Assembly (NCBI RefSeq): GCF_024502345.1
Contig: NZ_JALDNN010000003.1
Source of the DNA: Escherichia coli
Lineage (GTDB): Bacteria > Pseudomonadota > Gammaproteobacteria > Enterobacterales > Enterobacteriaceae
DNA length: 64,000 nucleotides
Direction: 5' to 3' (one strand)
The notes under the pieces were generated by a model. It saw only the letters and a program-made list of their open reading frames with translations, made no database searches and was not told the origin of the DNA. The position numbers and the translations under genes were made by a program. Each line of letters begins with the position of its first letter. Position 1 is the stretch's first letter. Shown here piece by piece: positions 16,540-58,659 of the stretch.

Positions 16540-16540
16540 T

Positions 16541-38355: not shown

Positions 38356-39412
38356 GGCTTTGTTGAATAAATCAGATTTCGGGTAAGTCTCCCCCGTAGC
38401 GGGTTGTGTTTTCAGGCAATACGCACGCTTTCAGGCATACCTGCTTTCGTCATTTTGTTCAGCGCTCGTACCAGGGCCATAGCCTCTGCAACCTGACCAT
38501 CGTAGTCACGCAGTGTCAGTGAACCCCCGAACAGCTGTTTTACCCGGTACATCGCCGTTTCCGCTATCGAGCGACGGTTGTAATCTGTTGTCCATTTCCA
38601 CCGCGCATTACTCCCGGTCATTCGCTGATTAGCCACTGCACGGTTACGGTCTGCATATTCACCGGGCCAGTAACCCGCACCTTTTCGGGGAGGGATAAGC
38701 GCGCTGATTTTCTTACGCCGCAGTTCATCGTGACATAGCCGGGTATCGTAAGCGCCATCGGCGGCGGCTGACCTGATTTTCCGGTGGGTTTGCCGGATTA
38801 ACCCGGGGAAGGCCTCTGAGTCCGTAACGTTGTTCAGCGACAGGTCAGCGCAGATGATTTCATGTGTTTTACTGTCAACGGCGAGATGCAGCTTACGCCA
38901 GATACGGCGGCGTTCCTGGCCATGCTTTTTGACTTTCCACTCGCCTTCACCGAAGACCTTCAGCCCGGTGGAATCAATTACCAGGTGTGCGATTTCACCC
39001 CGGGTGGGCGTTTTGAAACTGACATTAACCGACTTTGCCCGCCTGCTGACACAGCTGTAATCCGGGCAGCGTAGCGGAACGTTCATCAGAGAAAAAATGG
39101 AATCAATAAAGCCCTGCGCAGCGCGCAGGGTCAGCCTGAATACGCGTTTAATGACCAGCACAGTCGTGATGGCAAGGTCAGAATAGCGCTGAGGTCTGCC
39201 TCGTGAAGAAGGTGTTGCTGACTCATACCAGGCCTGAATAGCTTCATCATCCAGCCAGAAAGTTATGGAGCCACGGTTGATGAGGGCTTTATTGTAGGTG
39301 GGCCAGTTGGTGATTTTGAACTTTTGCTTTGCCACGGAACGGTCTGCGTTGTCGGGAAGATACGTGATCTGATCCTTCAACTCAGCAAAAGTTCGATTTA
39401 TTCAACAAAGCC
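38356..39412 (-). mobile_element. IS903-like element (IS5 family), 1057 bp
   Basis: 18-bp terminal IRs GGCTTTGTTGAATAAATC at both ends; no flanking 9-bp duplication (AATTCCATT vs GATTTTGGA). Confidence 0.9.
38412..39335 (-). CDS. IS903 transposase
   Basis: (V)AKQKFKITNWPTYNKALINRGSITFWLDDEAIQAWYES... about 307 aa; GTG start at 39335 (ORF track ATG at 39380). Confidence 0.9.
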   Translation of the reverse strand: MAKQKFKITNWPTYNKALINRGSITFWLDDEAIQAWYESATPSSRGRPQRYSDLAITTVLVIKRVFRLTLRAAQGFIDSIFSLMNVPLRCPDYSCVSRRAKSVNVSFKTPTRGEIAHLVIDSTGLKVFGEGEWKVKKHGQERRRIWRKLHLAVDSKTHEIICADLSLNNVTDSEAFPGLIRQTHRKIRSAAADGAYDTRLCHDELRRKKISALIPPRKGAGYWPGEYADRNRAVANQRMTGSNARWKWTTDYNRRSIAETAMYRVKQLFGGSLTLRDYDGQVAEAMALVRALNKMTKAGMPESVRIA

Positions 39413-39562
39413 GATTTTGGAATTTCCCCTACCATAATCTGGTAGCTACACATTCACTCGCAGAGATTAATCGCTTTAACATAATTAGTGCCAGCACTGA
39501 GTCCTTTAAAATTATAAATCCATGTTCTATCCATAACGTCGTGCCATTGCTCCTTTCGGTGT

Positions 39563-39844
39563 TCACTGCAAACGGGAGCAGGAATTCCGTTGCAGTTCTT
39601 CGGCCGCCTGCTGTTGCAGCACGACCATCACTCTGCTGAGCATTGTCAGCGCCTGGGAAGGGGAACCGCCAAACGTCAATTTGATTTCGTTGGTGGTGTG
39701 GTGCTGTTCCAGGTCGAGAATATTTACTTCCACGTCTGCGCCCTTCTCATCCTTAGCCGTACAATGAATGCTGACCCGGGTCACCGGGTCCTTAACTGTC
39801 TGCAATGGTTTCTTCGTGCTGATGTTGATTGCGGTATTCTTCAT
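39563..39844 (-). CDS. hypothetical protein (93 aa)
   Basis: ORF downstream of ParB-like gene; no family recognised. Confidence 0.4.
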   Translation of the reverse strand: MKNTAINISTKKPLQTVKDPVTRVSIHCTAKDEKGADVEVNILDLEQHHTTNEIKLTFGGSPSQALTMLSRVMVVLQQQAAEELQRNSCSRLQ

Positions 39845-39909
39845 TGCCCTGTTTCTCCTTGACCAGTGGTGGTAACCGACCCTACCGGGTGGCGGGGTCA
39901 GTCAGGAAA

Positions 39910-41115
39910 TCATGCCTGGCCCTTGTTCTGCTTTTCAGCATGTTTACGCAGGTACTGCGTCAGATCGCCGTGAGCTTCACAAATGGCATTCATCTCGTCA
40001 TTGGTCAGCACCAGAGTGTAAGTATCGTCGCTGAGGTTCTTAGCGGCCCGTTGTTTAGCTTCTTCCGCAATACGCGAAAACAGCGGGATTGCCGTGTCCG
40101 CAATCGTCGTCACGGTCTTTTTGTTCAGTACGCTGGAGACCGACACAGCTTTAGGCTCTGGCGTTTTGACCGGGTCTTTCATCTGCGGTGCCGGGGTCCT
40201 TTCCGGGGTCGGCTCCGGGTTAGTGCCCGCACTCCCGTCCACCAGCTGCGGTGGGGTGGTCTCATCGTTAGTACCTTCGCCGGACGTTTGTTCAGTCACG
40301 GTGGTTTCCGGGGGGGTCGCATTTGCGTCCGGCACGATGGCTGCTTTCGGCTTCATCGCTGCATCAATGTTGCCAGCTTTGACGAATTTCAGGGTTTTGG
40401 CCGTCGCCTTACCATAAACATCAATGGCTTTGGTGATGTTGTTGACCGCTTCATCGCCGCTGTAAAGGTATTCATCCAGCGCGACATACATACTCACTTC
40501 ACCCTTCACCAACATGGCCTGGAGGGCTTCAGGCAGATCCAGGACGCGAACCATCTGACGCAGGTGCTGTTCGGTTTTACCGCGACGCTTCGCCAGTTCA
40601 GCGAACGTTTTGGGTTCTTCCGCGTCTTCAACCATCCGTTTGATGGAGAGCGCCTCAGCTACGACAGACAGAGCCAGATTTGAGTTACCGTCCAGCGTAA
40701 ACTGCTCGGCACTGGCGCGGCTACCGCGAAACTCCTCGCATCGAATTAACGTGATCAATTCACGCCCTTCATCTGCCAGCTCGATGTTTGCCATCGCGAC
40801 GGCACGGATACGGCATGCTCCCTGGCGCAGGACCGGACGGCCATTCAGAATCTGTACGACAATAGCTTGTACGCTTAAAGGATCGATCTTGTAGGACTCT
40901 TTCAGGCTGTTCAGGTGGGCTACCACGTCAGGTAATGAGTAGTAACTCTCCCCAATGCCAGCAGTACGGGTGTTAAACCCCTCTTCCTCTTCGACCACTG
41001 CCGGGTTAATGACTAGACCATTGCTTTTGCGTGCGCCGTTACCGGTACGCTCCAGGTAGGTGCGCAGGCTGATATCGTTGTTAGCGGTTTTTACATCATT
41101 TTCGACAGTGGACAT
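39910..41115 (-). CDS. ParB/KorB-like DNA-binding protein (orphan, no adjacent ParA)
   Basis: GxxRxRA-type ParB box (RQGACRIRAVA), HTH (KTFAELAKRRGKTEQHLRQMVRVL), low-complexity P/T/E linker; assignment tentative. Confidence 0.5.
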   Translation of the reverse strand: MSTVENDVKTANNDISLRTYLERTGNGARKSNGLVINPAVVEEEEGFNTRTAGIGESYYSLPDVVAHLNSLKESYKIDPLSVQAIVVQILNGRPVLRQGACRIRAVAMANIELADEGRELITLIRCEEFRGSRASAEQFTLDGNSNLALSVVAEALSIKRMVEDAEEPKTFAELAKRRGKTEQHLRQMVRVLDLPEALQAMLVKGEVSMYVALDEYLYSGDEAVNNITKAIDVYGKATAKTLKFVKAGNIDAAMKPKAAIVPDANATPPETTVTEQTSGEGTNDETTPPQLVDGSAGTNPEPTPERTPAPQMKDPVKTPEPKAVSVSSVLNKKTVTTIADTAIPLFSRIAEEAKQRAAKNLSDDTYTLVLTNDEMNAICEAHGDLTQYLRKHAEKQNKGQA

Positions 41116-41204
41116 GGTGCCTTCCTTTTAGTTTTCGTTTAGGGTGTTTGTTCGCTACAAAACAACAATACCAGGTTCGATTCATTTCCTAATAACCTGA
41201 GGCG

Positions 41205-41230
41205 AAAAAAAAGTAACTTTTTTTCCGGGG
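41205..41230. promoter_or_regulatory. palindromic motif copy R0 (AAAGTAACTTT core + TTTTCCGGGGG)
   Basis: about 90 bp upstream of ParB-like gene start; see motif finding. Confidence 0.45.
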
Positions 41231-41324
41231 GTTATAGTACGCGATCCGTCCGTTTTAAATTCTCGCTAAGGAGGGCAAATTTCACTTTAGTGTGAAAAGC
41301 GGGTACATAAAGCAGGAATATGTC

Positions 41325-41348
41325 GAAAAAGTTACTTTCCCGGTTGCC
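41325..41348. promoter_or_regulatory. palindromic motif copy R1 GAAAAAGTTACTTTCCCGGTTGCC
   Basis: 23/24 match (one indel) to copy at 59289-59312. Confidence 0.5.
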
Positions 41349-41875
41349 TGAAAAAATGCCGTTGCAGCAAACACAAGGTGTGAACACCCCCCCCGCCCCG
41401 GCGGCTCCGGGCAAAGGAGTATCCGATGAAGCTTTCCCGGCAGACCACAAATGATACGGCTGTAATCGAAGGCACCCGCAGATTACCGACCATATCGCCT
41501 CCCAGCGAGCCACCGAAGCCAAAAAAGACGGCATGAATTTTAATGCAGGCGTTGAGCTTGCATCTAAAAGGAACTGTGCAACGAGGACAAACATTACCAT
41601 GATTGAACACCGCACAGAGATGCGCCAAACGGCCATTAAATCGCTTCAGGAAGCCGAAGAAGCATTGACGGCACTGGCTATGTCCTATGAGCTACAGCCC
41701 GATGATAAGGCCAGTTCGTGTCATCCACGGACCGGTACTCTCTCCACGGCCAGCCAGGTACGGAAATTGCGCCGTGTCGTCGAAAAGCAGAAAACTTGAA
41801 ATTCGACAAGGCGGCGGGTAGCTATTTCCTGCATGTACAAACTAACAAGGGTTTAGCCGACGATAGAAAGGAAAA

Positions 41876-41907
41876 AAGGGTTTCCCCGACCGGAGAAACC
41901 CTTTTCT
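41876..41907 (+). terminator. rho-independent-type hairpin (GGGTTTC...GAAACCC + T-run)
   Basis: AAGGGTTTCCCCGACCGGAGAAACCCTTTTCT. Confidence 0.45.
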
Positions 41908-41944
41908 AAAGGTGCCATTAGCTTGCTGGCCCACATTCTGAAAT

Positions 41945-41964
41945 GAGGGGGGTCGCCCCCCCTC
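41945..41964. terminator. G/C-rich perfect hairpin GAGGGGGG-TCG-CCCCCCTC just downstream of hok
   Basis: Read directly; 6 bp from hok stop codon. Confidence 0.4.
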
Positions 41965-41970
41965 TTTCAG

Positions 41971-42129
41971 CTACTTACCGGATTCGTAGTCCATCACAGC
42001 CGACACTTCCCGTGTACCGTCTTTCAGCCTCAGTTCGCAGAGCGAATTGCGCGTAAGCCAGGTGAATATCAACAGCGTAAGACATACTATCAATACGCAC
42101 AAAACAACGGGTTGGTTCGGCAGTTTCAT
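41971..42129 (-). CDS. hok: Hok/Gef-family type I toxin (52 aa)
   Basis: [52 protein letters not shown]; AAGGAG SD; ORF-track 100-aa version is an in-frame upstream extension. Confidence 0.85.
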
Positions 42130-42486
42130 GGCCTTCTTCTCCTTGCATTTAAGCGGGTAAGAGGCTACTCTGAATGTGACTAGCATACAGGGGCCTCGGG
42201 TTAATTTGAAAAAATTACTCGGGGCTTTCTGCTTTTTACCACAGTCAAACAGTGAATCTGCTGGCTGGGGCAAAAGCCTCCAGCACCGAGGTTATTATAC
42301 CACCCCGCCCCTTTTAAACGAACAGATCGTTCTCCTAAATATTTAATAAGTAAGTATTTCAGGTTTTGCTGCTTCGCAGGCTGTAACAGCAGGTGTCTGA
42401 CGTAATAACTGATTAAACAGACGGATTCGAATCTCAACACTCAACGACGCCAGCTCGCCTGTTCCCCCGCTTCTTTCCGGCTGTAA

Positions 42487-43092
42487 TCAGTCCGTTTTCG
42501 TACCAGCGATCAGTGACAAACGGTGAGCACGAACACTACTGTGCCGGAGGCTGTCCGGGTAATGGGCGATTTTCTCCAGTTCCTCATCGAGGCGGGTATA
42601 CGTCAGCCTCCTGATTTTCAAGATTTCCTTGTGAAGCCAGCGTTTGATAAAGGGATTGCCGGAAAGCAGTACCAGGTCTGCATCCTCCACTTCATCAAAA
42701 AGCCAGACGGGTTTTGCCGGAGTAAGGCGGTAGAGCCAGGTGCGGGAAAACTCCCCCGTTGCAATCAGAAACCAGACAACCATGCCAAGTGCGAACTCGA
42801 TGACCAGCATCAGGGTAAACTGAATATCCCGGACGTCAGGCTCTCCGGTAAAGCTCATTAGGCGGTCGCCAGTTGCCAGACGCTGAATAATACAGACCAG
42901 CATCAGCAGAGCCAGTAACAGCGCCATGAGCAGCCCGCCGTTCACTTCAAAAGTAGCTTTCTGGACGCGATCAGGCGGCACCTGCTTACGGTAGCGGCCG
43001 ACCACATCACCAATCATTACCCTGATGGCTATGCGTTCTTCATCGACCGTTGTTTCGGTAAATCCGGACGGGCCCGTTTCTGTTTGATTCAT
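42487..43092 (-). CDS. hypothetical membrane protein (201 aa, 2 predicted TM helices)
   Basis: Hydrophobic segments LLMALLLALLMLVCII and FTLMLVIEFALGMVVWFLIA. Confidence 0.5.
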   Translation of the reverse strand: MNQTETGPSGFTETTVDEERIAIRVMIGDVVGRYRKQVPPDRVQKATFEVNGGLLMALLLALLMLVCIIQRLATGDRLMSFTGEPDVRDIQFTLMLVIEFALGMVVWFLIATGEFSRTWLYRLTPAKPVWLFDEVEDADLVLLSGNPFIKRWLHKEILKIRRLTYTRLDEELEKIAHYPDSLRHSSVRAHRLSLIAGTKTD

Positions 43093-43305
43093 GTACCCTC
43101 TCCTCTCTCTGAAAAATAATGGTAAGACGCAAGCTGATCATACCAGGTGAGCAGGAGTGGTTTTGTCGGTTAAAGGCTGGAAAAAAACGGTTAAAAAAAG
43201 AGGGAAATGACAGCAAGAAGGTGGGATGCAGTAAGCGGCTTTGGTTCCCTCCGGTTCTGTGGGGAGGAAACGGCCAGAACAGCAGACCGATACGATGGGC
43301 GGGCG

Positions 43306-43587
43306 CTATTTTGTATCCAGAATTCGTGCCTTTTCTTCCCGCGTCGCCAGTCGGGCACTTCCGGAACGGTCGCGGATCAGCAGTGGCTTTTCCTTTTTCC
43401 AACCAGTGATAGCCGTTTCCCCGAAACGACGCGGTGCATTGCCATTCCAGCTGGCAATCACGTGATTATCGTGTACTTCCTTGATGACGACAGAATGAAG
43501 AGTCACCGTCTTAATGGTGGTGTTTCCCATTTTGGTCCGGGAGAGTGACCAGACGGTCATCCCCACCTCCAGCTGACTGAGTTTCAT
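43306..43587 (-). CDS. hypothetical protein (about 93 aa)
   Basis: Internal Met MKLSQLEVGMTVWS... taken as start. Confidence 0.4.
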   Translation of the reverse strand: MKLSQLEVGMTVWSLSRTKMGNTTIKTVTLHSVVIKEVHDNHVIASWNGNAPRRFGETAITGWKKEKPLLIRDRSGSARLATREEKARILDTK

Positions 43588-43718
43588 CTTTACTCCGGTA
43601 ATATCGGGATACATCATTAAACGACGTGGAGACGTAGGTTAGCATAAGCACTCACAGCGGATACTGCCGCCAGATAACAGGGTGAGGTATCCGCCATGAG
43701 CAGTCTTTACGGCTGGCG

Positions 43719-43889
43719 TTATTCGGCCAGGGCGCGGGTAATAGACGCACGCTGACGCTGGCGCTCAGCCTTACGCTGGCTGCGGCGATATAGCGGCTTC
43801 GCGGCAGCGTAGCGACAATCTTCCGGGTGGTACCAGCAACAGCCGCAGGGCTCAGGCTGGGGTTTTCCGGCAAGTCCGAATGGTTTCAT
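43719..43889 (-). CDS. small Cys-rich ORF (56 aa), not in ORF track
   Basis: MKPFGLAGKPQPEPCGCCWYHPEDCRYAAAKPLYRRSQRKAERQRQRASITRALAE; AAGGTGA SD 5 nt upstream; the overlapping ORF-track frame (43652-43873) lacks a comparable start context. Confidence 0.35.
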   Translation of the reverse strand: MKPFGLAGKPQPEPCGCCWYHPEDCRYAAAKPLYRRSQRKAERQRQRASITRALAE

Positions 43890-43930
43890 AATGTCACCTT
43901 TTAAATGGAATAATGTTCAGGTCCCGTCCA

Positions 43931-44254
43931 TCAGGCCACGGGTTCATTAATGAAGCGGCGTTGCATAAACAGGTACAGATAACCCTCTGGCGAGAACATA
44001 CAAAGATTCTCGGTAATACAGGCATCGAGGTACTTCGTGTCGCCAAGGAGTCGCTTAATGACAGCCAGCTGGTTAGCCGCAGACTGAATCAGCGGATAGC
44101 CATTCACGGCACGATGAATACCTGAGTGGAATAACGAACGAGCCTTTCCAATCTTTTCCCGGGTTGCGTCCATTTCCATATCGATAACAGACTGACGCGC
44201 AACATTAATAGCATTGCCGGATAACTCCGCGAAGCTAACCAGAGGCTTATTCAT
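43931..44254 (-). CDS. hypothetical protein (107 aa)
   Basis: ORF with SD-like GGAAGGAG upstream. Confidence 0.45.
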   Translation of the reverse strand: MNKPLVSFAELSGNAINVARQSVIDMEMDATREKIGKARSLFHSGIHRAVNGYPLIQSAANQLAVIKRLLGDTKYLDACITENLCMFSPEGYLYLFMQRRFINEPVA

Positions 44255-44439
44255 AAAAAACTCCTTCCAGGTATGTGAGCTTATTATATCAATACGGACT
44301 TTGCCCCAAACAACCCGACTCGAAATATTTTGGAAATTACTCTAATAACTAAAAATGGCACCCGGAAAATAGAATGAATTTATTTTAAGCTTGCCGAACA
44401 TGGCTGGCGGCGGAATTAAATTTGGGTAATGACTCCAAC

Positions 44440-44943
44440 TTATTGATAGTGTTTTATGTTCAGATAATGCCCGATGACTTTGTCATGCTGCTCCACCGAT
44501 TTTGAGAACGACAGCGACTTCCGTCCCAGCCGTGCCAGGTGCTGCCTCAGATTCAGGTTATGCCGCTCAATTCGCTGCGTATATCGCTTGCTGATTACGT
44601 GCAGCTTTCCCTTCAGGCGGGATTCATACAGCGGCCAGCCATCCGTCATCCATATCACCACGTCAAAGGGTGACAGCAGGCTCATAAGACGCCCCAGCGT
44701 CGCCATAGTGCGTTCACCGAATACGTGCGCAACAACCGTCTTCCGGAGCCTGTCATACGCGTAAAACAGCCAGCGCTGGCGCGATTTAGCCCCGACGTAT
44801 CCCCACTGTTCGTCCATTTCCGCGCAGACGATGACGTCACTGCCCGGCTGTATGCGCGAGGTTACCGACTGCGGCCTGAGTTTTTTAAATGGCGGAAAAT
44901 CGTGTTGAGGCCAACGCCCATAATGCGGGCGGTTGCCCGGCAT
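44440..44943 (-). CDS. insB: IS1 InsB (normally expressed as InsAB' by -1 frameshift)
   Basis: [27 protein letters not shown]...; differs at several residues from copy 2. Confidence 0.95.
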
Positions 44944-45137
44944 CCAACGCCATTCATGGCCATATCAATGATTTTCTGGTGCGTACCGGGTTGAGAAGCG
45001 GTGTAAGTGAACTGCAGTTGCCATGTTTTACGGCAGTGAGAGCAGAGATAGCGCTGATGTCCGGCAGTGCTTTTGCCGTTACGCACCACCCCGTCAGTAG
45101 CTGAACAGGAGGGACAGCTGATAGAAACAGAAGCCAC
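44862..45137 (-). CDS. insA: IS1 InsA
   Basis: [43 protein letters not shown]... Confidence 0.95.
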
Positions 45138-45290
45138 TGGAGCACCTCAAAAACACCATCATACACTAAATCAGTAAGTTGGCAGCATCACCGAAAATAA
45201 AATAGAGAGAGTTTTCAATCCGCATGACTTTAAAAAAGACAATTTTTAGAAATAAGCCGGATAAAAAAATAGCTTTATCCGGCACTCATA

Positions 45291-46241
45291 TTACAACCAG
45301 TTCTTCCGCTTAAAGTACAGATACGGTGCCAGGCCCGCGAGGATCATAAAGATAATCGCGGCAGGGTAGCCGAAGCTCCACTTCAGTTCTGGCATAAACT
45401 CAAAGTTCATGCCATAGCTGGAAGCAACGAGCGTCGGCGGCAGGAATACCACGGATACCACCGAGAAGATTTTGATGATGCGGTTCTGCTCGATGTTGAT
45501 AAAACCCATTGCCGCCTGCATCAGGAAGTTCACCTTCTGGAACAGGGATTCGTTATGCGGCAGCAGGGATTCGATATCTCGCAGGATTTCACGCGCCTGC
45601 TCCAGTTGCCCACCCGGTAAACGCGCTTTACGCACCAGGAAGTTGAGCGCGCGCTGGGTATCCATCAGACACAGGCGAACTTTCCAGCCGATATCTTCCA
45701 GTTCCGCCAGCGTGGAGAGCGCCTCGTCGTACTCATCGCCCTGATGCCCTTCCATAATCACCCGGCTCAACTGCTCCAGGTCGCTATAGATATTTTCAAT
45801 TTCATCTGCCAACTGTTCGATTTTGGTTTCGAACAGATCCAGCAGCAACTCGTAGGCGTTACCGTCTACCATCGACTGGCTACGGGCACGCATACGATAC
45901 AGACGAAAAGCGGGCAGTTCACGCTCACGCAGAGTAAACAGACGACCATCACGGATGGTAAATGCCACAGTGGAGTTACCGGCGTGATCTTCCGCATCTT
46001 CAAAGAAGAAGAAGGAGTGAATATGCAGGCCGTCGTCGTCTTCAAAGAAACGTGCCGATGCTTCGATGTCTTCCAGTTCCGGGCGGGTTGCCAGGCTCTG
46101 GCCAAGTTCAGATTGTAAGCGCAGTCGCTCGTCGTCGTCCGGTTCGACAAGATCAATCCATACTGCATTTACAAGGGGTTGTGACTCTTCGACTTCCAGC
46201 CGGGTCAGTCGGTTATTTTCCAGTTGAAATGCGCTCAGCAT
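45291..46241 (-). CDS. corA: magnesium/cobalt transporter CorA
   Basis: [31 protein letters not shown]...[17 protein letters not shown]...YFKRKNWL, essentially identical to enterobacterial CorA; terminator hairpin GCCGGATAAA...TTTATCCGGC downstream. Confidence 0.95.
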
Positions 46242-46640
46242 GACCGGGACTCCCAATGCTTAAAATATCGGACAGTTCGGTGGGCACACAGAAACAAATT
46301 GGGTTTCAGACCATTAAACAGCCTGACTCAGCGCGACGGGAAAAATTGAGGTCGCTGACAACCGCTAAGGCTATCAGCAAAAAGGGATAGCCTTAGGAGT
46401 TGATCCTGGATGACAGGATAGTGAGCCAGTATCTACTGGGTGTGTCCAAGGCGAATGTCCTCTTAGAGTGATCGTGCGCGCATGTTACGCCAGCAAAATT
46501 TTGCCGTCAACACGCAACAGAACACCACAGAACAATAGTTGAACTTCGCGCTTTTTGGTACTCGTCAAGGTCGCTAACAGGATAAAAAAATCCCACATCC
46601 AGGACCTATAATGGCGCATCAGCTACTCATTGGTAAAGGA

Positions 46641-46940
46641 ATGATCACCTTGAATCTCAAACGGATTTTTCTCGCCCTCACCTTACTTCCCTTGTTTGCT
46701 GTTGCCGCTGATGATTGCGCACTCTCAGATCCGACGCTGACCGTACAGGCGTATACCGTTAATCCTCAAACAGAGCGGGTGAAAATGTACTGGCAAAAAG
46801 CCAATGGCGAAGCGTGGGGAACGTTACATGCTCTGCTGGCGGATATTAATAGTCAGGGTCAGGTGCAGATGGCGATGAACGGCGGCATCTTAAATTTGAC
46901 GGTTTTTGATATAAAATATAGAAAGAAGGAGGTTTTCTGA
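46641..46940 (+). CDS. signal-peptide protein (99 aa), possibly a truncated chromosomal gene at an island junction
   Basis: MITLNLKRIFLALTLLPLFAVAADD...; stop embedded in hairpin AAGGAGGTTTTCTGAATACCTCCTT. Confidence 0.4.
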   Translation: MITLNLKRIFLALTLLPLFAVAADDCALSDPTLTVQAYTVNPQTERVKMYWQKANGEAWGTLHALLADINSQGQVQMAMNGGILNLTVFDIKYRKKEVF

Positions 46941-46959
46941 ATACCTCCTTCACTGGCGC

Positions 46960-47166
46960 TCAGTTCGAGAATACGTTAACGCTGTACCGTTTACCGAGCA
47001 CCTCGGCAGTGGTATCGACAATTTTCTGAATATCATCGGCAATCGCGGGTTTACTGAATGCGACGGTGTGCAGTTCACCAGCCTGTTCCGCCGTCGCACC
47101 ATCATGAAAGCGGCTGGCATCGTAAAGCTGGACCCGGAGTGTCCGGGTATAATCGACATGGCCCAT
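46960..47166 (-). CDS. small hypothetical protein (68 aa)
   Basis: ORF in unidirectional array; C-terminal block resembles the two 74-aa paralogues. Confidence 0.4.
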   Translation of the reverse strand: MGHVDYTRTLRVQLYDASRFHDGATAEQAGELHTVAFSKPAIADDIQKIVDTTAEVLGKRYSVNVFSN

Positions 47167-47200
47167 TATTCCTCTCCTGTTCAGTCAGGCGCTATACGCG

Positions 47201-47425
47201 TTAATAATCACTTTCTTCCGGTTGCGGCTGGGTGACAAACTGGTACTTCACCCCATTAGGGACGCCAACGGCTTTTGCTACAGATTCACACAGCAGCGAC
47301 AGGTCATTCAGAGTCATCGGATATTCGATATCGACGGAATATAAGGCCCCGGCGTTCTCGGCCTCTTCGATATTTTTATACTGGGCACTGAAAATGGCTA
47401 TGGTAGAGATTTCAAGGTTATGCAT
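47201..47425 (-). CDS. small hypothetical protein (74 aa), paralogue of 53302-53526
   Basis: Shares 19-residue block YPMTLNDLSLLCESVAKA(V/L) with 53302-53526 product. Confidence 0.5.
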   Translation of the reverse strand: MHNLEISTIAIFSAQYKNIEEAENAGALYSVDIEYPMTLNDLSLLCESVAKAVGVPNGVKYQFVTQPQPEESDY

Positions 47426-47478
47426 GAGTCAGTCCTTGTTAATAAAAAAGAAGCCACCGTAAGGTGGCTGAATAAAGG

Positions 47479-47685
47479 TTAATGGACCTGGCTGGCCTTT
47501 TTTTCCGCGTTCTTGTTGTAATCAACGCGGGCAATAACGACGGCAGCGGCCAGGAGTGCAGCGAGACCGCCGTAGAATACTGGTCGGGAGATATCGACGA
47601 ACATATCGCTCAGGTTATCAACGCCGAGGAGAAATACGCAGATAATGACGATAAAGCGAACAGGTTTGCTGTAGAACAATTTCAT
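47479..47685 (-). CDS. small membrane protein (68 aa)
   Basis: Two hydrophobic helices. Confidence 0.4.
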   Translation of the reverse strand: MKLFYSKPVRFIVIICVFLLGVDNLSDMFVDISRPVFYGGLAALLAAAVVIARVDYNKNAEKKASQVH

Positions 47686-47884
47686 CAGGAGCTATCCTTC
47701 TGGGGTGAAATGACACCAGCATTACACCATATCAGATGCCAATTTTTTTTCGGTAACGGGCCTATTTTGACAAGAAAAAAGACACATCAGGGAGGCAATG
47801 ACGAGAGTATTTTCGAGGTGCCTATGGCCTGTCACTTCCTGAACTCAGGAAAAGAACGATGCTGTAGAACACAATCGAAATATA

Positions 47885-47900
47885 GAAAAGTAACTTTTCC
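47885..47900. promoter_or_regulatory. palindromic motif copy R4 GAAAAGTAACTTTTCC
   Basis: Intergenic, 200 bp upstream of 47685 gene start. Confidence 0.45.
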
Positions 47901-48080
47901 ACCGACGATATGTCCGGCGGCAAGTTATTCTTATGCAGGGCACAAATCAGTGAATTGGGTTCCGCGCGGGAAAGTCAAAAAAACTTGCATGTCGTTCCGG
48001 ATGCCAGGCGACGTAGCACATAGATTTGGGCCTGTGTAAGCGGGGAGCTGGGACGTTTTGTGTCTGCCATAATGTTCCTT

Positions 48081-48341
48081 TTATAACGAGGGCTGTCCGG
48101 CTGACAGATTAGCGGACAGACCTGAAAATAACGTGCATATCCAGCACCTGGCTGAATCCCTGAGCGAGGCAAATGCCTTTACTCTTCCCCCTCCGACAAC
48201 AACAAAAATGCGTTGAGCTTCCTCTTCGGCCTGTTCATCAGTCATGCTTTTCTCGCGGATGTGCGAAGTAAACAGGCTCCAGTTTGCAGCGATAAAATCA
48301 CGTACTTGATGCATTTCCGAATTCTCAGCGTCAATAACCAT
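48081..48341 (-). CDS. hypothetical protein (86 aa)
   Basis: ORF in array. Confidence 0.4.
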   Translation of the reverse strand: MVIDAENSEMHQVRDFIAANWSLFTSHIREKSMTDEQAEEEAQRIFVVVGGGRVKAFASLRDSARCWICTLFSGLSANLSAGQPSL

Positions 48342-48429
48342 TTTTAGTGTCCTGTGTCTTAAATAAGGTCCGCCCTGTTAATAGATCAGGGACGGACTGT
48401 TTAAGCGAGATAGCCAGCCTGTGCCGTGG

Positions 48430-48936
48430 TTATCCATTCACCAGAGTGATTTTTGTGGGGGATACTTTGATACTAAAAGCATTAAATTTCTTTTTAAGAG
48501 CGAGTTCAAACCACGCCACCGGGATAGAGACCGAACTATCATCGCCGCCCAATGCCTCCTCTGCCTCGTCATACCATTCATCATCAACAGACGGATTCAT
48601 CCCACGGGCATAGACAACCGTATCACGGGAAACAGGGGTTCCATCCAGAGATGCATTGGTAATCAGATAGACGCCATGATCTTTTACCAGAAGGATCTGT
48701 GGAGTCAGGCGGGCCGGGTCAATGTGTTTGGATGATGGCCAGAAAATTCCCCCCGTCTGGTTCATTTCCACTTCTGTTTTGCCCTCTTCGTTGAGAGGAG
48801 TACCGCCGGGGTAATTTGACGGTTCAAAAAGCTGTTCAATGGTTGCATTGAACCGTTCCGCCGAGCGGAGTTCTTCGAGGAGCTTTTTTACCCCAGCAAT
48901 TTCGAATGTTAATGTGGTCATAAACTTATTCTCCAT
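48430..48936 (-). CDS. hypothetical protein (168 aa)
   Basis: ORF in array, acidic. Confidence 0.5.
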   Translation of the reverse strand: MENKFMTTLTFEIAGVKKLLEELRSAERFNATIEQLFEPSNYPGGTPLNEEGKTEVEMNQTGGIFWPSSKHIDPARLTPQILLVKDHGVYLITNASLDGTPVSRDTVVYARGMNPSVDDEWYDEAEEALGGDDSSVSIPVAWFELALKKKFNAFSIKVSPTKITLVNG

Positions 48937-49234
48937 CCGTAGTCAGCATCAGATATCGGGTGGCCAGTAGCAACTCTTTGACGTCAGCAGTTGAAACCTC
49001 CCCTTTGCCTTCTACCGCGTCCTGCAAACGCTGACGCGTCGCCTGAATCGTCTCTGACGACAGTGACGCCAGTTTGCTCAATACAGCGTTAGCTTTTTCC
49101 ACAGCGGGATACAGGGACTCTGAGGTGGTATTGTCTACATCGTTATCGAAAAACAGGTCAGACTCCATATTAATATTGTCTTCGAGCCAGCTGGTAAGAA
49201 TATCAAGTAAAGACATAACTTTATTAATCTGCAT
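48926..49234 (-). CDS. hypothetical protein (about 102 aa)
   Basis: ATG at 49234 with GAGGG SD; ORF-track N-terminal extension unlikely. Confidence 0.45.
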   Translation of the reverse strand: MQINKVMSLLDILTSWLEDNINMESDLFFDNDVDNTTSESLYPAVEKANAVLSKLASLSSETIQATRQRLQDAVEGKGEVSTADVKELLLATRYLMLTTDGE

Positions 49235-49442
49235 TTTTCTCGCCCTCGGTTGATGTAATTCAAATATAACAAACTGTCTCGTCTGGCTAATAACCCAGAA
49301 TGAAAAAAATAAGCGATTTATTAGATAGGACTGAATTAAATTTAAATGGAGTGCAGCCGGACTCAGTTTAAAAACACTCCGCGCTAAAGGCAGAAAAAAG
49401 CCTTCCGAAAGGGAAGGCTTATGCACTACATCAGGAAAAGAA

Positions 49443-49823
49443 CTATCGCTGCTTCTGGAGCGCGATATACGCTGCGAAAACAGCTACCAACACCGTCATG
49501 AAGTAAACTAGATATGAACCAGATTGCCAGACATTAACGCCAAAAAACGATATTAATTTTCCGTCCGGGATAACAGAAAAAATCAGGTTCCAGAATCCAA
49601 CCAGAACGACCTGAGAGATAATCATTTTACCAAGCGCTCCCAGTTCATGAGCCGCATACATTGCAGCCATGACAAATGTCAGAGCTACCACAAGCAGCGC
49701 AGACAAAGCCACAACCGAAATGCTCAGGCCGACGGATGTAAACAGAATGGCATCTTTAAAAGTCAGACCTGTAAAACCCCAGATCAGAATGGCTAAAATG
49801 AAAAACATAAGGATAAATTTCAC
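49443..49823 (-). CDS. integral membrane protein (126 aa, 4 TM)
   Basis: Hydrophobic throughout. Confidence 0.5.
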   Translation of the reverse strand: MKFILMFFILAILIWGFTGLTFKDAILFTSVGLSISVVALSALLVVALTFVMAAMYAAHELGALGKMIISQVVLVGFWNLIFSVIPDGKLISFFGVNVWQSGSYLVYFMTVLVAVFAAYIALQKQR

Positions 49824-49908
49824 TAGAATTGCGTCCCTCTTTCGGTGGCAGAGTGTCGGTCAGGATGCCTGTGGCGAGGCAACTACAGACAGAATTTAAC
49901 ACAAAAAA

Positions 49909-50193
49909 TTAATTACAAATCCGTTCACAGGCCTGTTTCAATGATTCTTTGGTATGGCTATGTGCGGCCTGATTTAACAATGCCCGGATGTGTAGTTCAT
50001 CATGACCGTCAGCTACAAAGAGTTTGATTTTACTTTCAAGGCGGCTCATGGCTTCGTAGAGTTTTGCCTCTTTATTGTTCTTCATAAAGCGAAGAATGTA
50101 ATCCGCAATAATATGCTCTGGTGGCGTTTTAATTTCACGGCAGCGATTGCTTGTCATGAGTTTTTCCTCAAGTTTGTGGCAAAATGGCACCAT
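49909..50193 (-). CDS. hypothetical protein (about 94 aa)
   Basis: Internal Met start MVPFCHKLEEK... Confidence 0.4.
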   Translation of the reverse strand: MVPFCHKLEEKLMTSNRCREIKTPPEHIIADYILRFMKNNKEAKLYEAMSRLESKIKLFVADGHDELHIRALLNQAAHSHTKESLKQACERICN

Positions 50194-50194
50194 C

Positions 50195-50422
50195 TCATTT
50201 AAGCCACCCTTTTCCGGTTGTATAATTAATTTGACCTGCTTTACACAGCGCCAGCAAACGGCGATCAAGAATATGCGACGGTTGCGGATTGCTTTCCCCG
50301 GCTGCAATCCGGTGACACTCTGCTTTGATCTCTCCGGCAAATAATGTCGAGAACGGCGTAGGAACTGGGGTAAGAATTTCGTTGAGTGCCCTGTCCAGCG
50401 CCAGATACTTATCCATATTCAT
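50195..50422 (-). CDS. hypothetical protein (about 75 aa)
   Basis: Internal Met start MNMDKYLALDRALNEIL... Confidence 0.4.
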   Translation of the reverse strand: MNMDKYLALDRALNEILTPVPTPFSTLFAGEIKAECHRIAAGESNPQPSHILDRRLLALCKAGQINYTTGKGWLK

Positions 50423-50591
50423 GTCCTTGCAGGTAATTGAATGGATGGGATTTAAATTTATTATACTGAATCGAGTTACTAAACTAATATCCTTCAGGAT
50501 GAAGAAAGGAATCATCCACCTTCAGTATGTATTCGACATATAGGACACGTCTCTAAAATTTTTCGCGTTTTCGCGATTTACACCGACAGGC

Positions 50592-50945
50592 CTACCAGTC
50601 ACCACCTTCGATATGAAGTTGCGTCGCAGAAACAGCCACCATTTCCTGCATTGGCTGGTCATGCTTGTTATGACTACTCCCAAGCAGTAGGCTCACCTTG
50701 CCGTTAGCGGAATAAAACATAGCATCAGGAAAATGCTCTCTGACTTCCCCCAGCAATGTGTGCATCGACTGAGTCAGTCGGTAGAATCGACGTGCGGCAG
50801 TCGGCATTGCATCATCAAGGAGATCTCCGGCGTCGCCGTCCCCGCTGTTTATGAAACTCAGTACCTTATCTTCGTCCATTCGAACCTCTTTTTCAGTCAT
50901 GTCATATATATCCATTGAGATATCTGTCAGCCTGAGCAACGACAT
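50592..50945 (-). CDS. hypothetical protein (117 aa)
   Basis: ORF in array. Confidence 0.45.
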   Translation of the reverse strand: MSLLRLTDISMDIYDMTEKEVRMDEDKVLSFINSGDGDAGDLLDDAMPTAARRFYRLTQSMHTLLGEVREHFPDAMFYSANGKVSLLLGSSHNKHDQPMQEMVAVSATQLHIEGGDW

Positions 50946-50960
50946 CAGGCTGACCTTCGC

Positions 50961-51569
50961 TCACCCGGTAATAACGATGGCCTGTTCCAATTGTGGCTGG
51001 CGATCCCCCCGCAGCGCTACCGACTCCTGGAGGCGTGCGGAAGGCATCGTCATTGCCTTAAACCCCTCATCCCGCGAACGCACCAGCATCCCCCACGAAT
51101 GGGTTTCACAGACATCGTTCTCGAAATTGGGTTCGGTCGACAGCAGTGATTCCATCTTCGGTTCGATGTGTACCGGCGCAATGTTTTTATAAACAGGGTG
51201 AACACGACACTGTTCAGACGCTTGTGCTCGGTAGCTCCCTTGCGCCAGCAGCACGTCATGGGAAACCAGGTCATAATCTGTATCTTCGACAAAAGTCTTC
51301 AGGGTGTGCGTTATTTTGCCGAATCCTTCGATATTCCAGACGGACACCATCGTAAACTCTTCAAACGCACGGGGACTTTTGACCAAAAATCCATTCAGCG
51401 CCCTACGCCCCTTCAGCATCCCCACCAGGTATTGCTTGTTGGGATAAGGGCGCATCGCAACAAGGTCATTACCAGTCAGGCGTAGCGACAGTTCCGGGAC
51501 GCTTACGGAATCCAGCGTGCAAAGATTTCCCATCGGATGCAGGATTTTTGGTACAAGGTGCAAAAACAT
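50961..51569 (-). CDS. hypothetical protein (202 aa)
   Basis: ORF in array. Confidence 0.5.
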   Translation of the reverse strand: MFLHLVPKILHPMGNLCTLDSVSVPELSLRLTGNDLVAMRPYPNKQYLVGMLKGRRALNGFLVKSPRAFEEFTMVSVWNIEGFGKITHTLKTFVEDTDYDLVSHDVLLAQGSYRAQASEQCRVHPVYKNIAPVHIEPKMESLLSTEPNFENDVCETHSWGMLVRSRDEGFKAMTMPSARLQESVALRGDRQPQLEQAIVITG

Positions 51570-51599
51570 CGGTATTCTCCTCGTTTATTAAGCCTTCAA

Positions 51600-52136
51600 T
51601 TATTGTGCCGTCGCCTGATGTATTTCGAACCAGAAGACAACCGGCTTTTCCGTGACTTCAATTAACCCAAATCGCTCTGCGGTTCTGAAGTTGACGCTGT
51701 ATGCCCTGGCGCGTTCTACCTGGCGGCTTATTTCTTTCCTCATGCCTTCAACACTTAATGCACCTTTAAAGAGATTGCAGGGGGCGCAAGCCGGAAAAAG
51801 ATTTTCGATTGCATGCAGTTCAGGGTGCATGACCTTACCGGTACTTCGAGCCCGGTGTGTCACTCGACTTCCAGCGGGGGCTCTGACCATTTCAAAATCC
51901 CGCCTCACCGGTTCAACATGATCGGCATGCCAGCCTTTTTCCGGCAAAGGACAGCCGCAGTAGGCACACCGACCGCCAAATTTCAAACGCAGTTCGGCTC
52001 GTTGCTCTTTGGATATTTTATTTTTTGGTTTTGAAAATCGCCCATCATCAGATTCAACCTTCGGGAGGAGTTCTGAAAAATTGGGTAATTCGATTACTGC
52101 GCCTTTGTTATTTAGAACTTTCACCGGACCTCCCAA
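51600..52136 (-). CDS. HNH endonuclease-domain protein (178 aa)
   Basis: CAYCGC...HADHVEP...N...ACAPCN = C-x2-C / H-x-D-H / C-x2-C HNH signature. Confidence 0.75.
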   Translation of the reverse strand: MGGPVKVLNNKGAVIELPNFSELLPKVESDDGRFSKPKNKISKEQRAELRLKFGGRCAYCGCPLPEKGWHADHVEPVRRDFEMVRAPAGSRVTHRARSTGKVMHPELHAIENLFPACAPCNLFKGALSVEGMRKEISRQVERARAYSVNFRTAERFGLIEVTEKPVVFWFEIHQATAQ

Positions 52137-52154
52137 CCATATTAAGACGATTTT

Positions 52155-52466
52155 TTATTTATTTTCCTGAATTAGTTTTCGAATTTTAATCAGGTGTGGT
52201 CGGCTTAATTTGCATAGCTGTTCGGTCGCGGCATCCAGAGTGGGAAATACATGGGCCTCATTAATATCCAGTGTCCAGTATTTCGCTTTACCTTCTCCCA
52301 GATCAGATTCAAAGTAATTCCGCTTTACCCCAATCTGCTTTGGTCTTCCATTAATTCTGACGATTTCATGCCGCTCGTCGAAGATAAAACCCTCTCCGAC
52401 CAACGTCAGGAGGACAAAAGGGCCCTCGGCCTTTTGCGTACCCAGCGAACTCATCTCATTATTCAT
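52155..52466 (-). CDS. hypothetical protein (103 aa)
   Basis: ATGA-coupled to upstream gene. Confidence 0.45.
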   Translation of the reverse strand: MNNEMSSLGTQKAEGPFVLLTLVGEGFIFDERHEIVRINGRPKQIGVKRNYFESDLGEGKAKYWTLDINEAHVFPTLDAATEQLCKLSRPHLIKIRKLIQENK

Positions 52467-53146
52467 ACGACCTCCCCGGTAATACGCTTAAAGTTGACGA
52501 CCCAGACCCACGGGTTGGCCTGCCAACTGTCCTCGCCGTACGTGTTTTTCCAGAGGCTGCGGAAGCCAAGAAAGTGCTTATCGCCAAGAACACAACATTC
52601 TGTTGGTGCGCCTTCAGCTTTGGCATCTTCCTCGCTGATGGTATTTAACCGCTCTACCCGCAAATCGGTAATTTCCAGTGCAATACGGCTGGCCCAGCGA
52701 GGCATATGGATTGAAGGTGTCCACGCACCTTCGAACTTCATATTTTCGGTACGAGGCTTCCAGTCGGCCTCATCAGGGATCGACCACAGCCCATAATCCC
52801 CCGACCGCTGTTCGCAGCTCGCCCGGTAAATGCGGGCTGCTTCAGTCCTGTCCATCACGATGTTGTCATTCCAGTCCACCGCGCACGCATCTTCATTCCC
52901 GAGCAATGAAAACGCCTCACGGACCGTAATGCGGTCGCCAACTACGCCGTACGGACAAGGCCGAAGCGCCGAGTATGGCTGGGTCCCTGTTGGAAGCCAC
53001 CAGTCATGCGTGTGCCCGCGATGTCGCGGTGTTTGCGCAGGCCTTATAGACCATTCATCCGAACTATATTGAGGCTTTATAATCCGCCGCGTCTGTGTTT
53101 TCTGATCTGCCAGAATTGCCCGGACCATTTCATCATTAAAAAGCAT
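52463..53146 (-). CDS. phage-type ASCH/PUA-like protein (tentative)
   Basis: N-terminus MLFNDEMVRAILADQKTQTRRII resembles common phage ASCH-domain proteins. Confidence 0.5.
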   Translation of the reverse strand: MLFNDEMVRAILADQKTQTRRIIKPQYSSDEWSIRPAQTPRHRGHTHDWWLPTGTQPYSALRPCPYGVVGDRITVREAFSLLGNEDACAVDWNDNIVMDRTEAARIYRASCEQRSGDYGLWSIPDEADWKPRTENMKFEGAWTPSIHMPRWASRIALEITDLRVERLNTISEEDAKAEGAPTECCVLGDKHFLGFRSLWKNTYGEDSWQANPWVWVVNFKRITGEVV

Positions 53147-53301
53147 TCCACGAGTCTTCACTGTGCTGACTCCTTTCACACATGGTTCACACATTGAGAG
53201 GCCTATCCCTCTTTATCAGCCAGGCATACCGAAACTGTCGGTAGTTTTACGGGAACGGGCAACTGCCCCCCTACCTGATAAAGTGGTGTTCTCCCCCAAA
53301 A

Positions 53302-53526
53302 TTAATCGTATTCCCCATCCACTACCGGCTCAGTCGTAATTTCATATTTCACTCCGCCGGGTACATCCAACGCTTTAGCGACGGACTCACACAGCAATGA
53401 CAAATCATTCAGGGTCATTGGGTATTCAACTTCCAGGCTGTGCAGTGCATTGGCGCTGGCAGCAGCAGCCTTGTCAGCATGACAGGCATTAAAAACGAAA
53501 ACGGTGGTTTTTTCTTGAATAGGCAT
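53302..53526 (-). CDS. small hypothetical protein (74 aa), paralogue of 47201-47425
   Basis: ...EYPMTLNDLSLLCESVAKALDVPGGVKY... Confidence 0.5.
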   Translation of the reverse strand: MPIQEKTTVFVFNACHADKAAAASANALHSLEVEYPMTLNDLSLLCESVAKALDVPGGVKYEITTEPVVDGEYD

Positions 53527-53612
53527 AGTGCAATCCTCTGAATAATTAGCCCTGTGATCAGGGCGGTTTTTGATTAAATTTAAATGTTCGTTTTCAATAA
53601 TTAGTGAATCTG

Positions 53613-54077
53613 TTAATCGGGTTGTGACTTATCATTTTCTCCAACCGAAGTGCTGTCGAGAAATGACCATTCTTGTTTGGGGCTTTTATATAATGCACTA
53701 GCCTCAGTACTCATCCACGACTCACAGGCTTTATAAGTCATGCCTTCCTCTCTAACGCGGTCCTTAAAATACGCCCAGGCTTGCAGATCAAGCGGCTGAT
53801 ACTCTTTCAGCGACTGGTCAAGCCTTTCCTTCCAGATTTTCTTCCGATGAGTAAAATGAGGAAAAGCCAGGAATGCATAACTACCTGCAACAAAAAAAAA
53901 GAACAGGAGTCCGCCCCATAGAGAATGTTTGAAAAACACCAGTCCTGGGAAAATCCATGCCACAATGGCAACAAATAAAAGAAGGTGCTCCTTCCCAGTA
54001 GGTTTATTAAAATGCCAGGAAATTGCAATACACTTTAATTTACTAAAGTGATTTTGTTTCTCCTTAATATCGGTCAT
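53613..54077 (-). CDS. membrane protein (154 aa)
   Basis: Two long hydrophobic segments. Confidence 0.5.
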   Translation of the reverse strand: MTDIKEKQNHFSKLKCIAISWHFNKPTGKEHLLLFVAIVAWIFPGLVFFKHSLWGGLLFFFFVAGSYAFLAFPHFTHRKKIWKERLDQSLKEYQPLDLQAWAYFKDRVREEGMTYKACESWMSTEASALYKSPKQEWSFLDSTSVGENDKSQPD

Positions 54078-54123
54078 ATATCAGTCCTTACTTATAAAAA
54101 AATGGTTATTATTAGTCTGATGT

Positions 54124-54137
54124 AAAAGTTACTTTTC
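54124..54137. promoter_or_regulatory. palindromic motif copy R5 AAAAGTTACTTTTC
   Basis: 47 bp upstream of 54077 gene start. Confidence 0.45.
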
Positions 54138-54259
54138 AAAACAGTCCCTTTAACGAATTCCGCACCTGCGCTCATTACAACACACACCATTCGGCGCTTT
54201 TTCCGTTAACGGGGCTATTTTCACGTTTTTTGCACGTATGTCTGATTTTGCTGGTGGGC

Positions 54260-56689: not shown

Positions 56690-56811
56690 TTAATATCTTC
56701 AGCGCAATATGTGAAGCTAAAAATAGTTAAATTGAAATCATGCCAATTTAATTAAATAACACTGAACAAATAAAATTACGCGGCAATAAATATATTATGT
56801 TCTCCACGCTC

Positions 56812-57258
56812 TCACGAATACTGCTGGGTAATTAAAACCGTCGCATTTGATTCCAGCTCTGCCAACGGAATTAGGGGCGTATTGAGCATCATGTCATCGC
56901 CGCAATGACGGGGTACAGCCGTCAGATGAAATGATTCTTTCATGACCCGGATGGAAGTTGTTTCCGTGCGGCAGGAGGGCATTACGTCCCGGAGCATCGT
57001 TTCCTGTCCGCTGCTGTCACTTTCAATAAACGCAGCCTGCGACATGAGAACCTCAATGTCCTCTTCCAATGTTTCGGACCAGTGGCAGTCATAGAAGAAA
57101 AACTCGGCGGCGTACAAATCATTTTCTTTCACGTATGCCGCCAGTTCACGGATACGCTTAGCCAGCGACGTATCAATGGAAAAGAAGACGCTTTGCGGGA
57201 CATCACTCGCAAATTCATTGATGCAGCTAGCGGACAAAATCAGGATTTTATTGGTCAT
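56812..57258 (-). CDS. hypothetical protein (about 148 aa)
   Basis: Internal Met MTNKILILSASCINEF... Confidence 0.45.
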   Translation of the reverse strand: MTNKILILSASCINEFASDVPQSVFFSIDTSLAKRIRELAAYVKENDLYAAEFFFYDCHWSETLEEDIEVLMSQAAFIESDSSGQETMLRDVMPSCRTETTSIRVMKESFHLTAVPRHCGDDMMLNTPLIPLAELESNATVLITQQYS

Positions 57259-57305
57259 TTTCAGCTCTCCATGCCACCGGCTGTTCCGGTGGCAATCAGG
57301 GATTA

Positions 57306-58112: not shown

Positions 58113-58339
58113 TGCATAACTCCTTATTTAATTAAATGTGATTGCTGTCTGTGAATAGATAATATCAAAACAGATACCTGCACCTAATAACCAATAATGA
58201 AATATGTTCGAAATTTTTATAGAGCAGACAGCGCCATATTTAATAATCCAACTTTTATTCTGGATACGGTGTAAAATAAATATACGGGAAAACAAAAAAC
58301 CGCCACAAGGGCGGAATTTATTAGACGGGAAAGATTTGG

Positions 58340-58603: not shown

Positions 58604-58659
58604 TTTTCTCCGCCTTCAATTTTTAAATTTGTCAGTTCTGCTACGTGTAAAAAACAGCA

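Follow-up and report, generated by a model that had tools for sequence, protein, structure and literature searches.

A very probable remnant of an IS1-bounded composite carrying Escherichia coli corA on an IncHI1 plasmid

Tn9 and Tn1681 are composite transposons bounded by IS1. In regard to how IS1 leaves a donor molecule, Sekine in 1997 and Turlan and Chandler in 1995 reportedly described IS1 circles in which a spacer of 6-9 bp, derived from the flank, lies between the two ends. Excision stimulated by the excision enhancer protein IEE is known for IS1, IS3 and IS30. IS1 does form excised circles, with a low basal excision rate that is stimulated by IEE, as stated in the review text of the preprint bioRxiv 10.1101/2023.06.07.543989. 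Among R27-like IncHI1 plasmids the presence of corA varies (bioRxiv 10.1101/334409), and an IS1-corA module is already known, being present and annotated in the reference IncHI1 plasmids R27 and pHCM1. The locus described here lies in a stretch of 64,000 nucleotides from Escherichia coli, hereafter called the window. It is, in our opinion very probably, the remnant of an IS1-bounded composite that carried E. coli corA onto an IncHI1 resistance plasmid of the typhoid type.

On either side of the locus, at positions 39400-44424 and 46899-64000, the window matches R27 and its relatives at 99.5-99.8%, which bears out the plasmid-like character that an initial annotation, made from the sequence alone, had given to the DNA beyond the IS1. 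R27 alone shows 99.8% identity to 39400-44423 and 46889-50329, the segment 46899-64000 is covered to at least 80% by 228 plasmids, and 14 plasmids including pHCM1 (S. Typhi CT18) match all of 41425-49898 except for a 33-bp deletion in IS1. The matching plasmid records are typed as MOBH/MPF_F with IncHI1 or IncFIA(HI1) replicons, and judging from these sequence matches we take the window to be an R27/pHCM1-type IncHI1 plasmid, at least over 39400-64000. Since at least 39 IncHI1 plasmids among the matches listed carry the two flanks only, in contiguous form, corA is an insertion into one backbone; the island junction postulated earlier does not exist, the DNA right of 46898 and that left of 44416 being parts of the same backbone. 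Three of these empty-site plasmids read ...GGCGGAATTAAATTTGACGGTTTTTG..., with neither IS1 nor corA present, and the empty site itself reads GGAATTAAATTTGACGG, in which the sequence duplicated in the window occurs once. Related genomes with the same gene order minus the IS1, which the initial annotation would have taken as the mark of a native corA context, are not what the comparison returned, as the relatives are without both IS1 and corA. The hairpin to the right of the locus is found in the empty-site plasmids immediately right of the target, and is probably the terminator of a converging minus-strand backbone gene (46960-47166). In pSGB23-type plasmids there is another IS1 insertion, 67 bp from this site.

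Table 1. Features of the IS1-corA locus, in window coordinates.
Feature	Position	Strand	Remarks
Left target-site duplication copy	44416-44424		TTAAATTTG, IncHI1 intergenic DNA; single-copy in empty-site plasmids
IS1 copy 1 (IS1a)	44425-45192	minus	complete, 768 bp; IRR at 44425, IRL end at 45192
insB frame	44440-44943	minus	ORF and Pfam IS1 match
insA	44862-45137	minus	ORF and Pfam IS1 match
Captured E. coli chromosomal fragment	45193-46890		1698 bp; composite central segment minus its last 8 bp
DUF943-family gene remnant	45193-45249	+	last 57 bp including the stop codon
corA intrinsic terminator hairpin	45256-45283	minus	terminator scan: 11 pairs, then T-run; present in the native E. coli locus
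corA, Mg2+/Co2+/Ni2+ channel	45291-46241	minus	316 aa, intact
corA 5′ leader	46350-46510	minus	promoter-like site 46482-46510; leader hairpins 46350-46380
ysgD (corL), small leader ORF	46393-46449	minus	translation identical to K-12
Truncated yigE	46611-46940	+	codons 1-93 of 254 (to 46889) and 16 plasmid-derived codons, stop at 46940
Right target-site duplication copy	46891-46898		TAAATTTG; 9 bp (TTAAATTTG) counting T46890
Plasmid-backbone hairpin	46925-46951	minus	stems 46925-46933 / 46943-46951; outside the captured DNA

The IS1 at this locus has the length of 768 bp and the imperfect terminal inverted repeats (GGTGATGCTGCC.../GGTAATGACTCC...) by which the family is recognized, with an exact 16-nt IRR, GGTAATGACTCC, at 44425 and the IRL at 45177-45192. 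A Pfam search returned the domains Zn_ribbon_InsA, HTH_Tnp_IS1 and DDE_Tnp_IS1, and the A-run frameshift site TTTAAAAAAC is found on the coding strand at 44885-44894, with the insA and insB' frames intact. This copy is 99% identical to a second one elsewhere in the window (60663-61430), which has GAAATACCG on both sides. Its SNPs are IS1B-like and it is without the 33-bp deletion, and is thereby distinct from the copy in pHCM1. Its own flanks do not match (TTAAATTTG to the left and GAAAATAAA to the right), and an 8-9-bp duplication directly flanking this copy alone, looked for at both ends, is absent, as it should be for an IS that forms one end of a composite. The initial annotation spoke of an IS1 without target duplication, which is correct as far as these two flanks go but misleading, because TAAATTTG, at 44417-44424 and again at 46891-46898, brackets the IS1 and the fragment together as a direct repeat. 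An 8-bp match at two fixed positions would arise by chance with p ~1.5e-5. The assignment of T46890 is ambiguous, as native yigE has a T there too. The right copy is at the same time the scar left by the loss of a second IS1; none is present beside corA in the window, where only one of the two IS1 copies that make up a composite is found.

Between the two copies of the duplication, corA, ysgD and the 5′ end of yigE stand in their native order at 99.8% identity to K-12. The capture of a chromosomal fragment onto a mobile element by IS1, one of two possibilities raised by the initial annotation, is what we find, with IncHI1 backbone on both sides of a piece of E. coli chromosome. Positions 99-1698 of the fragment differ from K-12 MG1655 at three sites, and the corresponding segment in eight other loci differs at 1-4 sites each. 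The first 98 bp are missing from K-12 and are native, at 96-98% identity, in 2755 of the 5426 E. coli genomes; the genomes that have them (roughly half) are those in which a DUF943-family gene adjoins corA. One native locus of this type reads ...acacaa/GAAAATAAAatagag (a slash marks a junction here and below), the DUF943 CDS ending 57 bp into the segment, which indicates that the first IS1 entered the DUF943 gene at its 3′ end, and the second one yigE, at TATGATGAA. The original insertion of IS1a is presumed to have cut the DUF943-family gene, with GAAAATAAA as its target.

The corA gene was described at the outset as near-identical to that of enterobacteria and as keeping its terminator, and both statements hold: 314 of the 316 amino acids are identical to those of K-12 CorA (the differences being V42L and G294A), and the hairpin downstream is followed by its T-run. 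At the protein level, Pfam CorA (PF01544) is matched over residues 27-312 (E=5e-58) and the GMN motif is kept (YGMNF); the same gene carries the corA annotation in R27, pHCM1 and others. Given that its own promoter region, the ysgD leader and the terminator are retained, the plasmid corA is probably expressed as a second copy providing an extra Mg2+/Co2+/Ni2+ channel, the promoter-like and terminator-like hits in the leader being consensus matches only. The 99-aa signal-peptide ORF ending in a hairpin (46641-46940) that had been reported next to it is present, and it turns out to be part of a truncated yigE fused to plasmid codons, 109 aa long from the annotated start at 46611, while the hairpin is derived from the plasmid. 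A Pfam search with the truncated ORF gave no match, and other copies of it are annotated as an incomplete phosphodiester glycosidase.

The complete form of the element is found in the IncHI1 plasmid pSD134209-1 (NZ_CP029690.1), where IS1-1706 bp-IS1 is present at exactly this site, with both IRR ends outward and a perfect 9-bp duplication, TTAAATTTG, on each side. The left junction of that composite (duplication/IS1 IRR) is identical to the outer junction of the window's IS1 (TTAAATTTG/IRR), and where the window has the remnant at 46891-46898 the plasmid has the second IS1 followed by the full TTAAATTTG. A search for the whole composite retrieved it from 143 of 5426 complete E. coli genomes and from nine PLSDB plasmids, with identical inner boundaries in six independent contexts. 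It is located at unrelated positions in E. coli chromosomes (rhsB, beside glcA, beside yagU and in an integrase island), as well as in an IncR plasmid of Enterobacter hormaechei and in an E. coli plasmid typed as IncHI1B. A matching outer duplication is absent at all five non-IncHI1 copies examined, so that the IncHI1 site alone gives direct evidence that the composite transposed as a whole. In every composite the central segment is 8 bp longer than in the window, and since these additional bases (atgatgaa) are native yigE sequence, the single-IS1 form derives from the composite and not the reverse. The junction between IS1a and the fragment occurs in 152 records as against 146 with the full composite, four of the six extra records being pHCM1-type plasmids. 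The form with a single IS1 is essentially an IncHI1 feature, and was not found outside this IncHI1 site among the 5426 E. coli genomes.

Within IncHI1, the single-IS1 form exists in two orientations. pHCM1 (NC_003384.1) and 13 other plasmids agree with the window in insertion site, orientation and junctions, and carry the same 1698-bp fragment with two SNPs; all 14 pHCM1-type records have the 33-bp deletion inside IS1, whereas the IS1 of the window is intact. In R27 (NC_002305.1) and about 26 relatives, IS1 and 1698 bp are found at the window's backbone site but inverted, and the remnant of the duplication lies 1 bp off that of the window, the 8-bp repeat of R27 being AAATTTAA. Window-type junctions are seen in the 14 pHCM1-type and R27-type junctions in 27 R27-type plasmid records, and the outer IS1 junction of R27, IRR'/TTAAATTTGACGG, recurs as the right junction in pSD134209-1. 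Compared with the composite, the window and R27 are each without the yigE-side IS1 plus 9 bp, or 777 bp. The piece missing from the window is atgatgaa + IS1 + T (or tatgatgaa + IS1), and the one missing from R27 is atgatgaa + IS1 + one duplication base (or seven and two bases). On the backbone, the SNPs 47482 A and 48192 T are common to the window, pHCM1, R27 and pSD134209-1 and are not present in two empty-site plasmids, and R27 and pSD134209-1 have three further backbone SNPs in common. From these shared SNPs, two and three in number, assessed with two empty-site plasmids and in a plasmid group that recombines, a single insertion with the composite as the ancestral state and two separate IS1 losses would seem moderately probable.

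The history that we propose would begin in a DUF943-type E. coli, where, as the native loci suggest, an IS1 would have entered the DUF943 gene at its 3′ end, and a second IS1, inverted, would have entered yigE at TATGATGAA, giving IS1-1706 bp-IS1 with the IRR ends outward. As the comparison shows, this composite then inserted into the intergenic sequence GGAA-TTAAATTTG-ACGG of an R27-like backbone, duplicating 9 bp, and it is this state that survives in pSD134209-1. Recombination between the inverted IS1 copies could flip the central segment, and the opposite orientations of the window and R27 would fit such a flip before each loss. The IS1 at the yigE end and 9 bp, 777 bp in total, would have been lost twice, on the way to pHCM1 and the window and again in the lineage of R27, the central segment being flipped one way in the first case and the other way in the second; the comparison displays this outcome, and the route to it is discussed below. 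All that is left is one IS1, the fragment with corA, and 8 bp of the second copy of the duplication.

As to the cause of the loss, the likeliest is excision of IS1, either by circle formation and resealing of the donor or by microhomology end-joining. The missing 777 bp correspond to 768 + 9 bp, which is the size expected from a circle with its spacer and a resealed donor. Excision of IS1 together with 9 bp from one side is an exact fit to the junction of the window and is off by one base in R27, where catcT/AAATTTAA is observed as against an expected catc/CAAATTTAA; circle excision proper would take 9 + 0, whereas R27 requires a split of 8 bp and 1 bp between the two sides. Microhomology at the junction amounts to 1 nt in the window and 1 nt in R27. 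Two independent deletions of exactly 777 bp whose breakpoints differ by no more than 1 bp are an uncomfortable coincidence, and no mechanism that we tried accounts for both. An in-situ inversion that would turn the window form and the R27 form into one another by recombination across the AAATTT palindrome of the duplication, worked out by hand, predicts AAATTT-AA-gatg... and ...cattacc-C-AAATTT, and is contradicted by R27, which has AAATTT-A-gatg... and ...cattacc-TT-AAATTT. If IS1 had inverted replicatively within the molecule and a deletion between the AAATTT repeats had followed, the outcome would be one base off, and for a hairpin or slippage deletion the flanks are weakly complementary, and not in the same way in the two configurations. 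SNP typing, applied to see which copy survived, revealed that the IS1 copies are mosaics of IS1A-like and IS1B-like variants, presumably through gene conversion. More speculatively, and with rather less than even chances, the yigE-side IS1 could have been removed recurrently by a specific transposase-driven reaction in which IS1 leaves with a 9-bp spacer and the donor is resealed, and the 8 of 9 match of the fragment's last 9 bp to IRL positions 4-12 may have helped such removal. If this were true, the R27 and pHCM1 lineages would be two natural, decades-old donor-side products of IS1 circle formation.

Other origins of the locus have to be weighed against a composite that lost one IS1. The IS1 and the 1698-bp fragment could be a unit with a single IS, mobilized by means of its IRR and of a surrogate end at the point where the yigE sequence stops, which inserted independently in both orientations into an IncHI1 hot spot. 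Such a unit would agree with the perfect 8-bp repeats of the window (TAAATTTG) and R27 (AAATTTAA) and their 1-bp offset; the fragment ends in 9 bp (GGCGGCATC) whose reverse complement agrees with IRL positions 4-12 at 8 of 9 bases, such matches numbering 32 in the window, and a hot spot would suit the IS1 inserted 67 bp off in pSGB23-type plasmids. However, in pSD134209-1 the same 9-bp target is occupied by the full composite, whose outer IS1 junctions are the same as well, the single-IS1 form is absent beyond this IncHI1 site in the 5426 E. coli genomes, the putative end is without the terminal GGT and lies 3 nt out of register with respect to the true IS1 end, and the backbone SNPs put all corA-bearing plasmids together. 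We therefore regard this possibility as improbable.

An F-prime-like capture, in which an IS1-mediated cointegrate of plasmid and chromosome was resolved by an imprecise excision that took corA DNA along, is still harder to sustain. Classically it leaves one IS1 with chromosomal DNA on one side, and the left junction (duplication/IRR-IS1-IRL/corA flank) is as a cointegrate would give, but it predicts neither a duplication bracketing the IS1 and the fragment, nor the two-IS1 form at the same site in pSD134209-1, nor the recurrence of one 1706-bp segment, with an IS1 on each side, at many unrelated loci. Finally, corA could be in its native chromosomal surroundings, with IS1 having rearranged them, or an IncHI1 plasmid could have become integrated into a chromosome, and to this reading we give the least credence of all. 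It would explain the native order and the 99.8% identity to K-12 of corA, ysgD and the yigE 5′ end; yet uvrD and the rest of yigE are missing on one side, DUF943/YPO3983 or yigF/yigG and rarD are missing on the other, and the same junctions recur in 14 pHCM1-type and 27 R27-type records. The rearranged chromosome that the initial annotation had offered as its second possibility is excluded on these grounds, the native neighbours of corA being absent with plasmid genes in their place. Integration of a whole plasmid into the chromosome would leave the identity of the corA unit unchanged.

In the literature searched we found no description of the IS1-corA-IS1 composite or of the two IS1 losses, both of which are small refinements of a known arrangement. 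The finding overall changes little and is of modest use. It gives a clear example of IS1 composites moving housekeeping genes too, and not resistance genes alone; through the corA composite, about 2.6% of complete E. coli genomes have corA in a second copy. IncHI1 lineages can be marked by where the module sits and which way it points, together with the 33-bp deletion in IS1, and the two 777-bp losses add a small natural data point on the departure of IS1 from a donor molecule.

Compared with known systems, the locus bears a superficial likeness to the one-ended or surrogate-end units of the ISEcp1 type, in that a single IS and the DNA adjacent to it lie inside a direct repeat, but the repeat at this locus goes back to a composite with two IS1 copies, and the unit is unseen at other sites. 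It differs from the composites of the Tn9 and Tn1681 type in that its passenger is a housekeeping cation channel and not a resistance or toxin gene, in that its IS1 copies are inverted, and in that the window, without its second IS1, can no longer move as a composite. It resembles them in that the ancestral element, as seen in pSD134209-1, is a passenger between two IS1 copies flanked by a 9-bp duplication, and in that the corA composite has spread across many replicons.

Set against reference strains, the captured fragment appears to be a chimera. Its corA-to-yigE part is K-12-like, differing from K-12 by 3 SNPs, and the 98 bp downstream of corA (45193-45290 in the window) derive from the alternative DUF943/YPO3983 neighbourhood; native strains with that neighbourhood have corA alleles that are only 97-99% identical to the one in the fragment. 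No exact donor lineage turned up among the native strains compared. In all 14 pHCM1-type plasmids from PLSDB, the IS1 adjoining corA has a 33-bp internal deletion within the transposase frame (alignment columns 370-402, pHCM1 locus 1861-2595 against window 44425-45192). The window's IS1 copy 1 (44425-45192) has its full length, and its SNPs follow an IS1B-like pattern; either the window predates this deletion or gene conversion from another IS1 repaired its copy.

At the other end of the fragment, the last 9 bp (46881-46889, GGCGGCATC) match IS1 IRL positions 4-12 in reverse complement at 8 of 9 positions, a match picked post hoc in a window where 32 such matches were observed against 17.5 expected. 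In the IS1-corA-IS1 composite (MSB1_9D locus, 8462-8490) this stretch lies 12 bp from the true IRL, so that two IS1-like ends face each other. The IRL-like end may be a reason for IS1 insertion there, or for the loss of that IS1 copy. In five non-IncHI1 copies of the composite that were examined, the outer ends are in no case flanked by matching 9-bp repeats, and their present positions probably result from IS1-IS1 recombination or later rearrangement rather than from clean transposition.

In pSGB23 the intergenic region with the TTAAATTTG target holds a lone IS1B (6442-7209 of the locus), which lies 67 bp away on the left side of the target, an arrangement that is a feature of pSGB23-type IncHI1 plasmids; the AT-rich spacer holding this target has therefore drawn IS1 on more than one occasion. 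IS1 copy 2 is flanked by a perfect 9-bp duplication, GAAATACCG. Given that copies 1 and 2 are 99% identical, 15.5 kb apart and in opposite orientations, the segment between them (45193-60662) could flip by homologous recombination.

Features of the accessory region, the corA-adjoining DNA and IS1 copy 2
Feature	Window position	Strand or orientation	Remark
Citrate genes dpiB, citF, citT	within 1-39400		accessory region
DNA cytosine methyltransferase	within 1-39400		accessory region
Tn3/IS66/ISNCY elements	within 1-39400		accessory region
SulP transporter and arsenic transporter	within 1-39400		accessory region
ParB-HTH protein, 401 aa	39910-41115	minus	adjoins corA unit
Hok-family toxin ORF	within 41971-42273	minus	adjoins corA unit
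IS1 copy 2	60663-61430	inverted relative to copy 1	simple insertion

The part of the window before about 39.4 kb consists of accessory DNA and not R27 backbone, with a markedly AT-rich stretch at 29000-31000 (GC 0.29-0.35, compared with about 0.50 elsewhere). Over positions 1-20000 there is a 100% match to plasmid NZ_LR890350.1 of E. coli MSB1_9D, and the chromosome of this same strain carries the composite inside rhsB. The ParB-HTH and Hok-family genes (39910-42273) are typical of plasmid leading regions.
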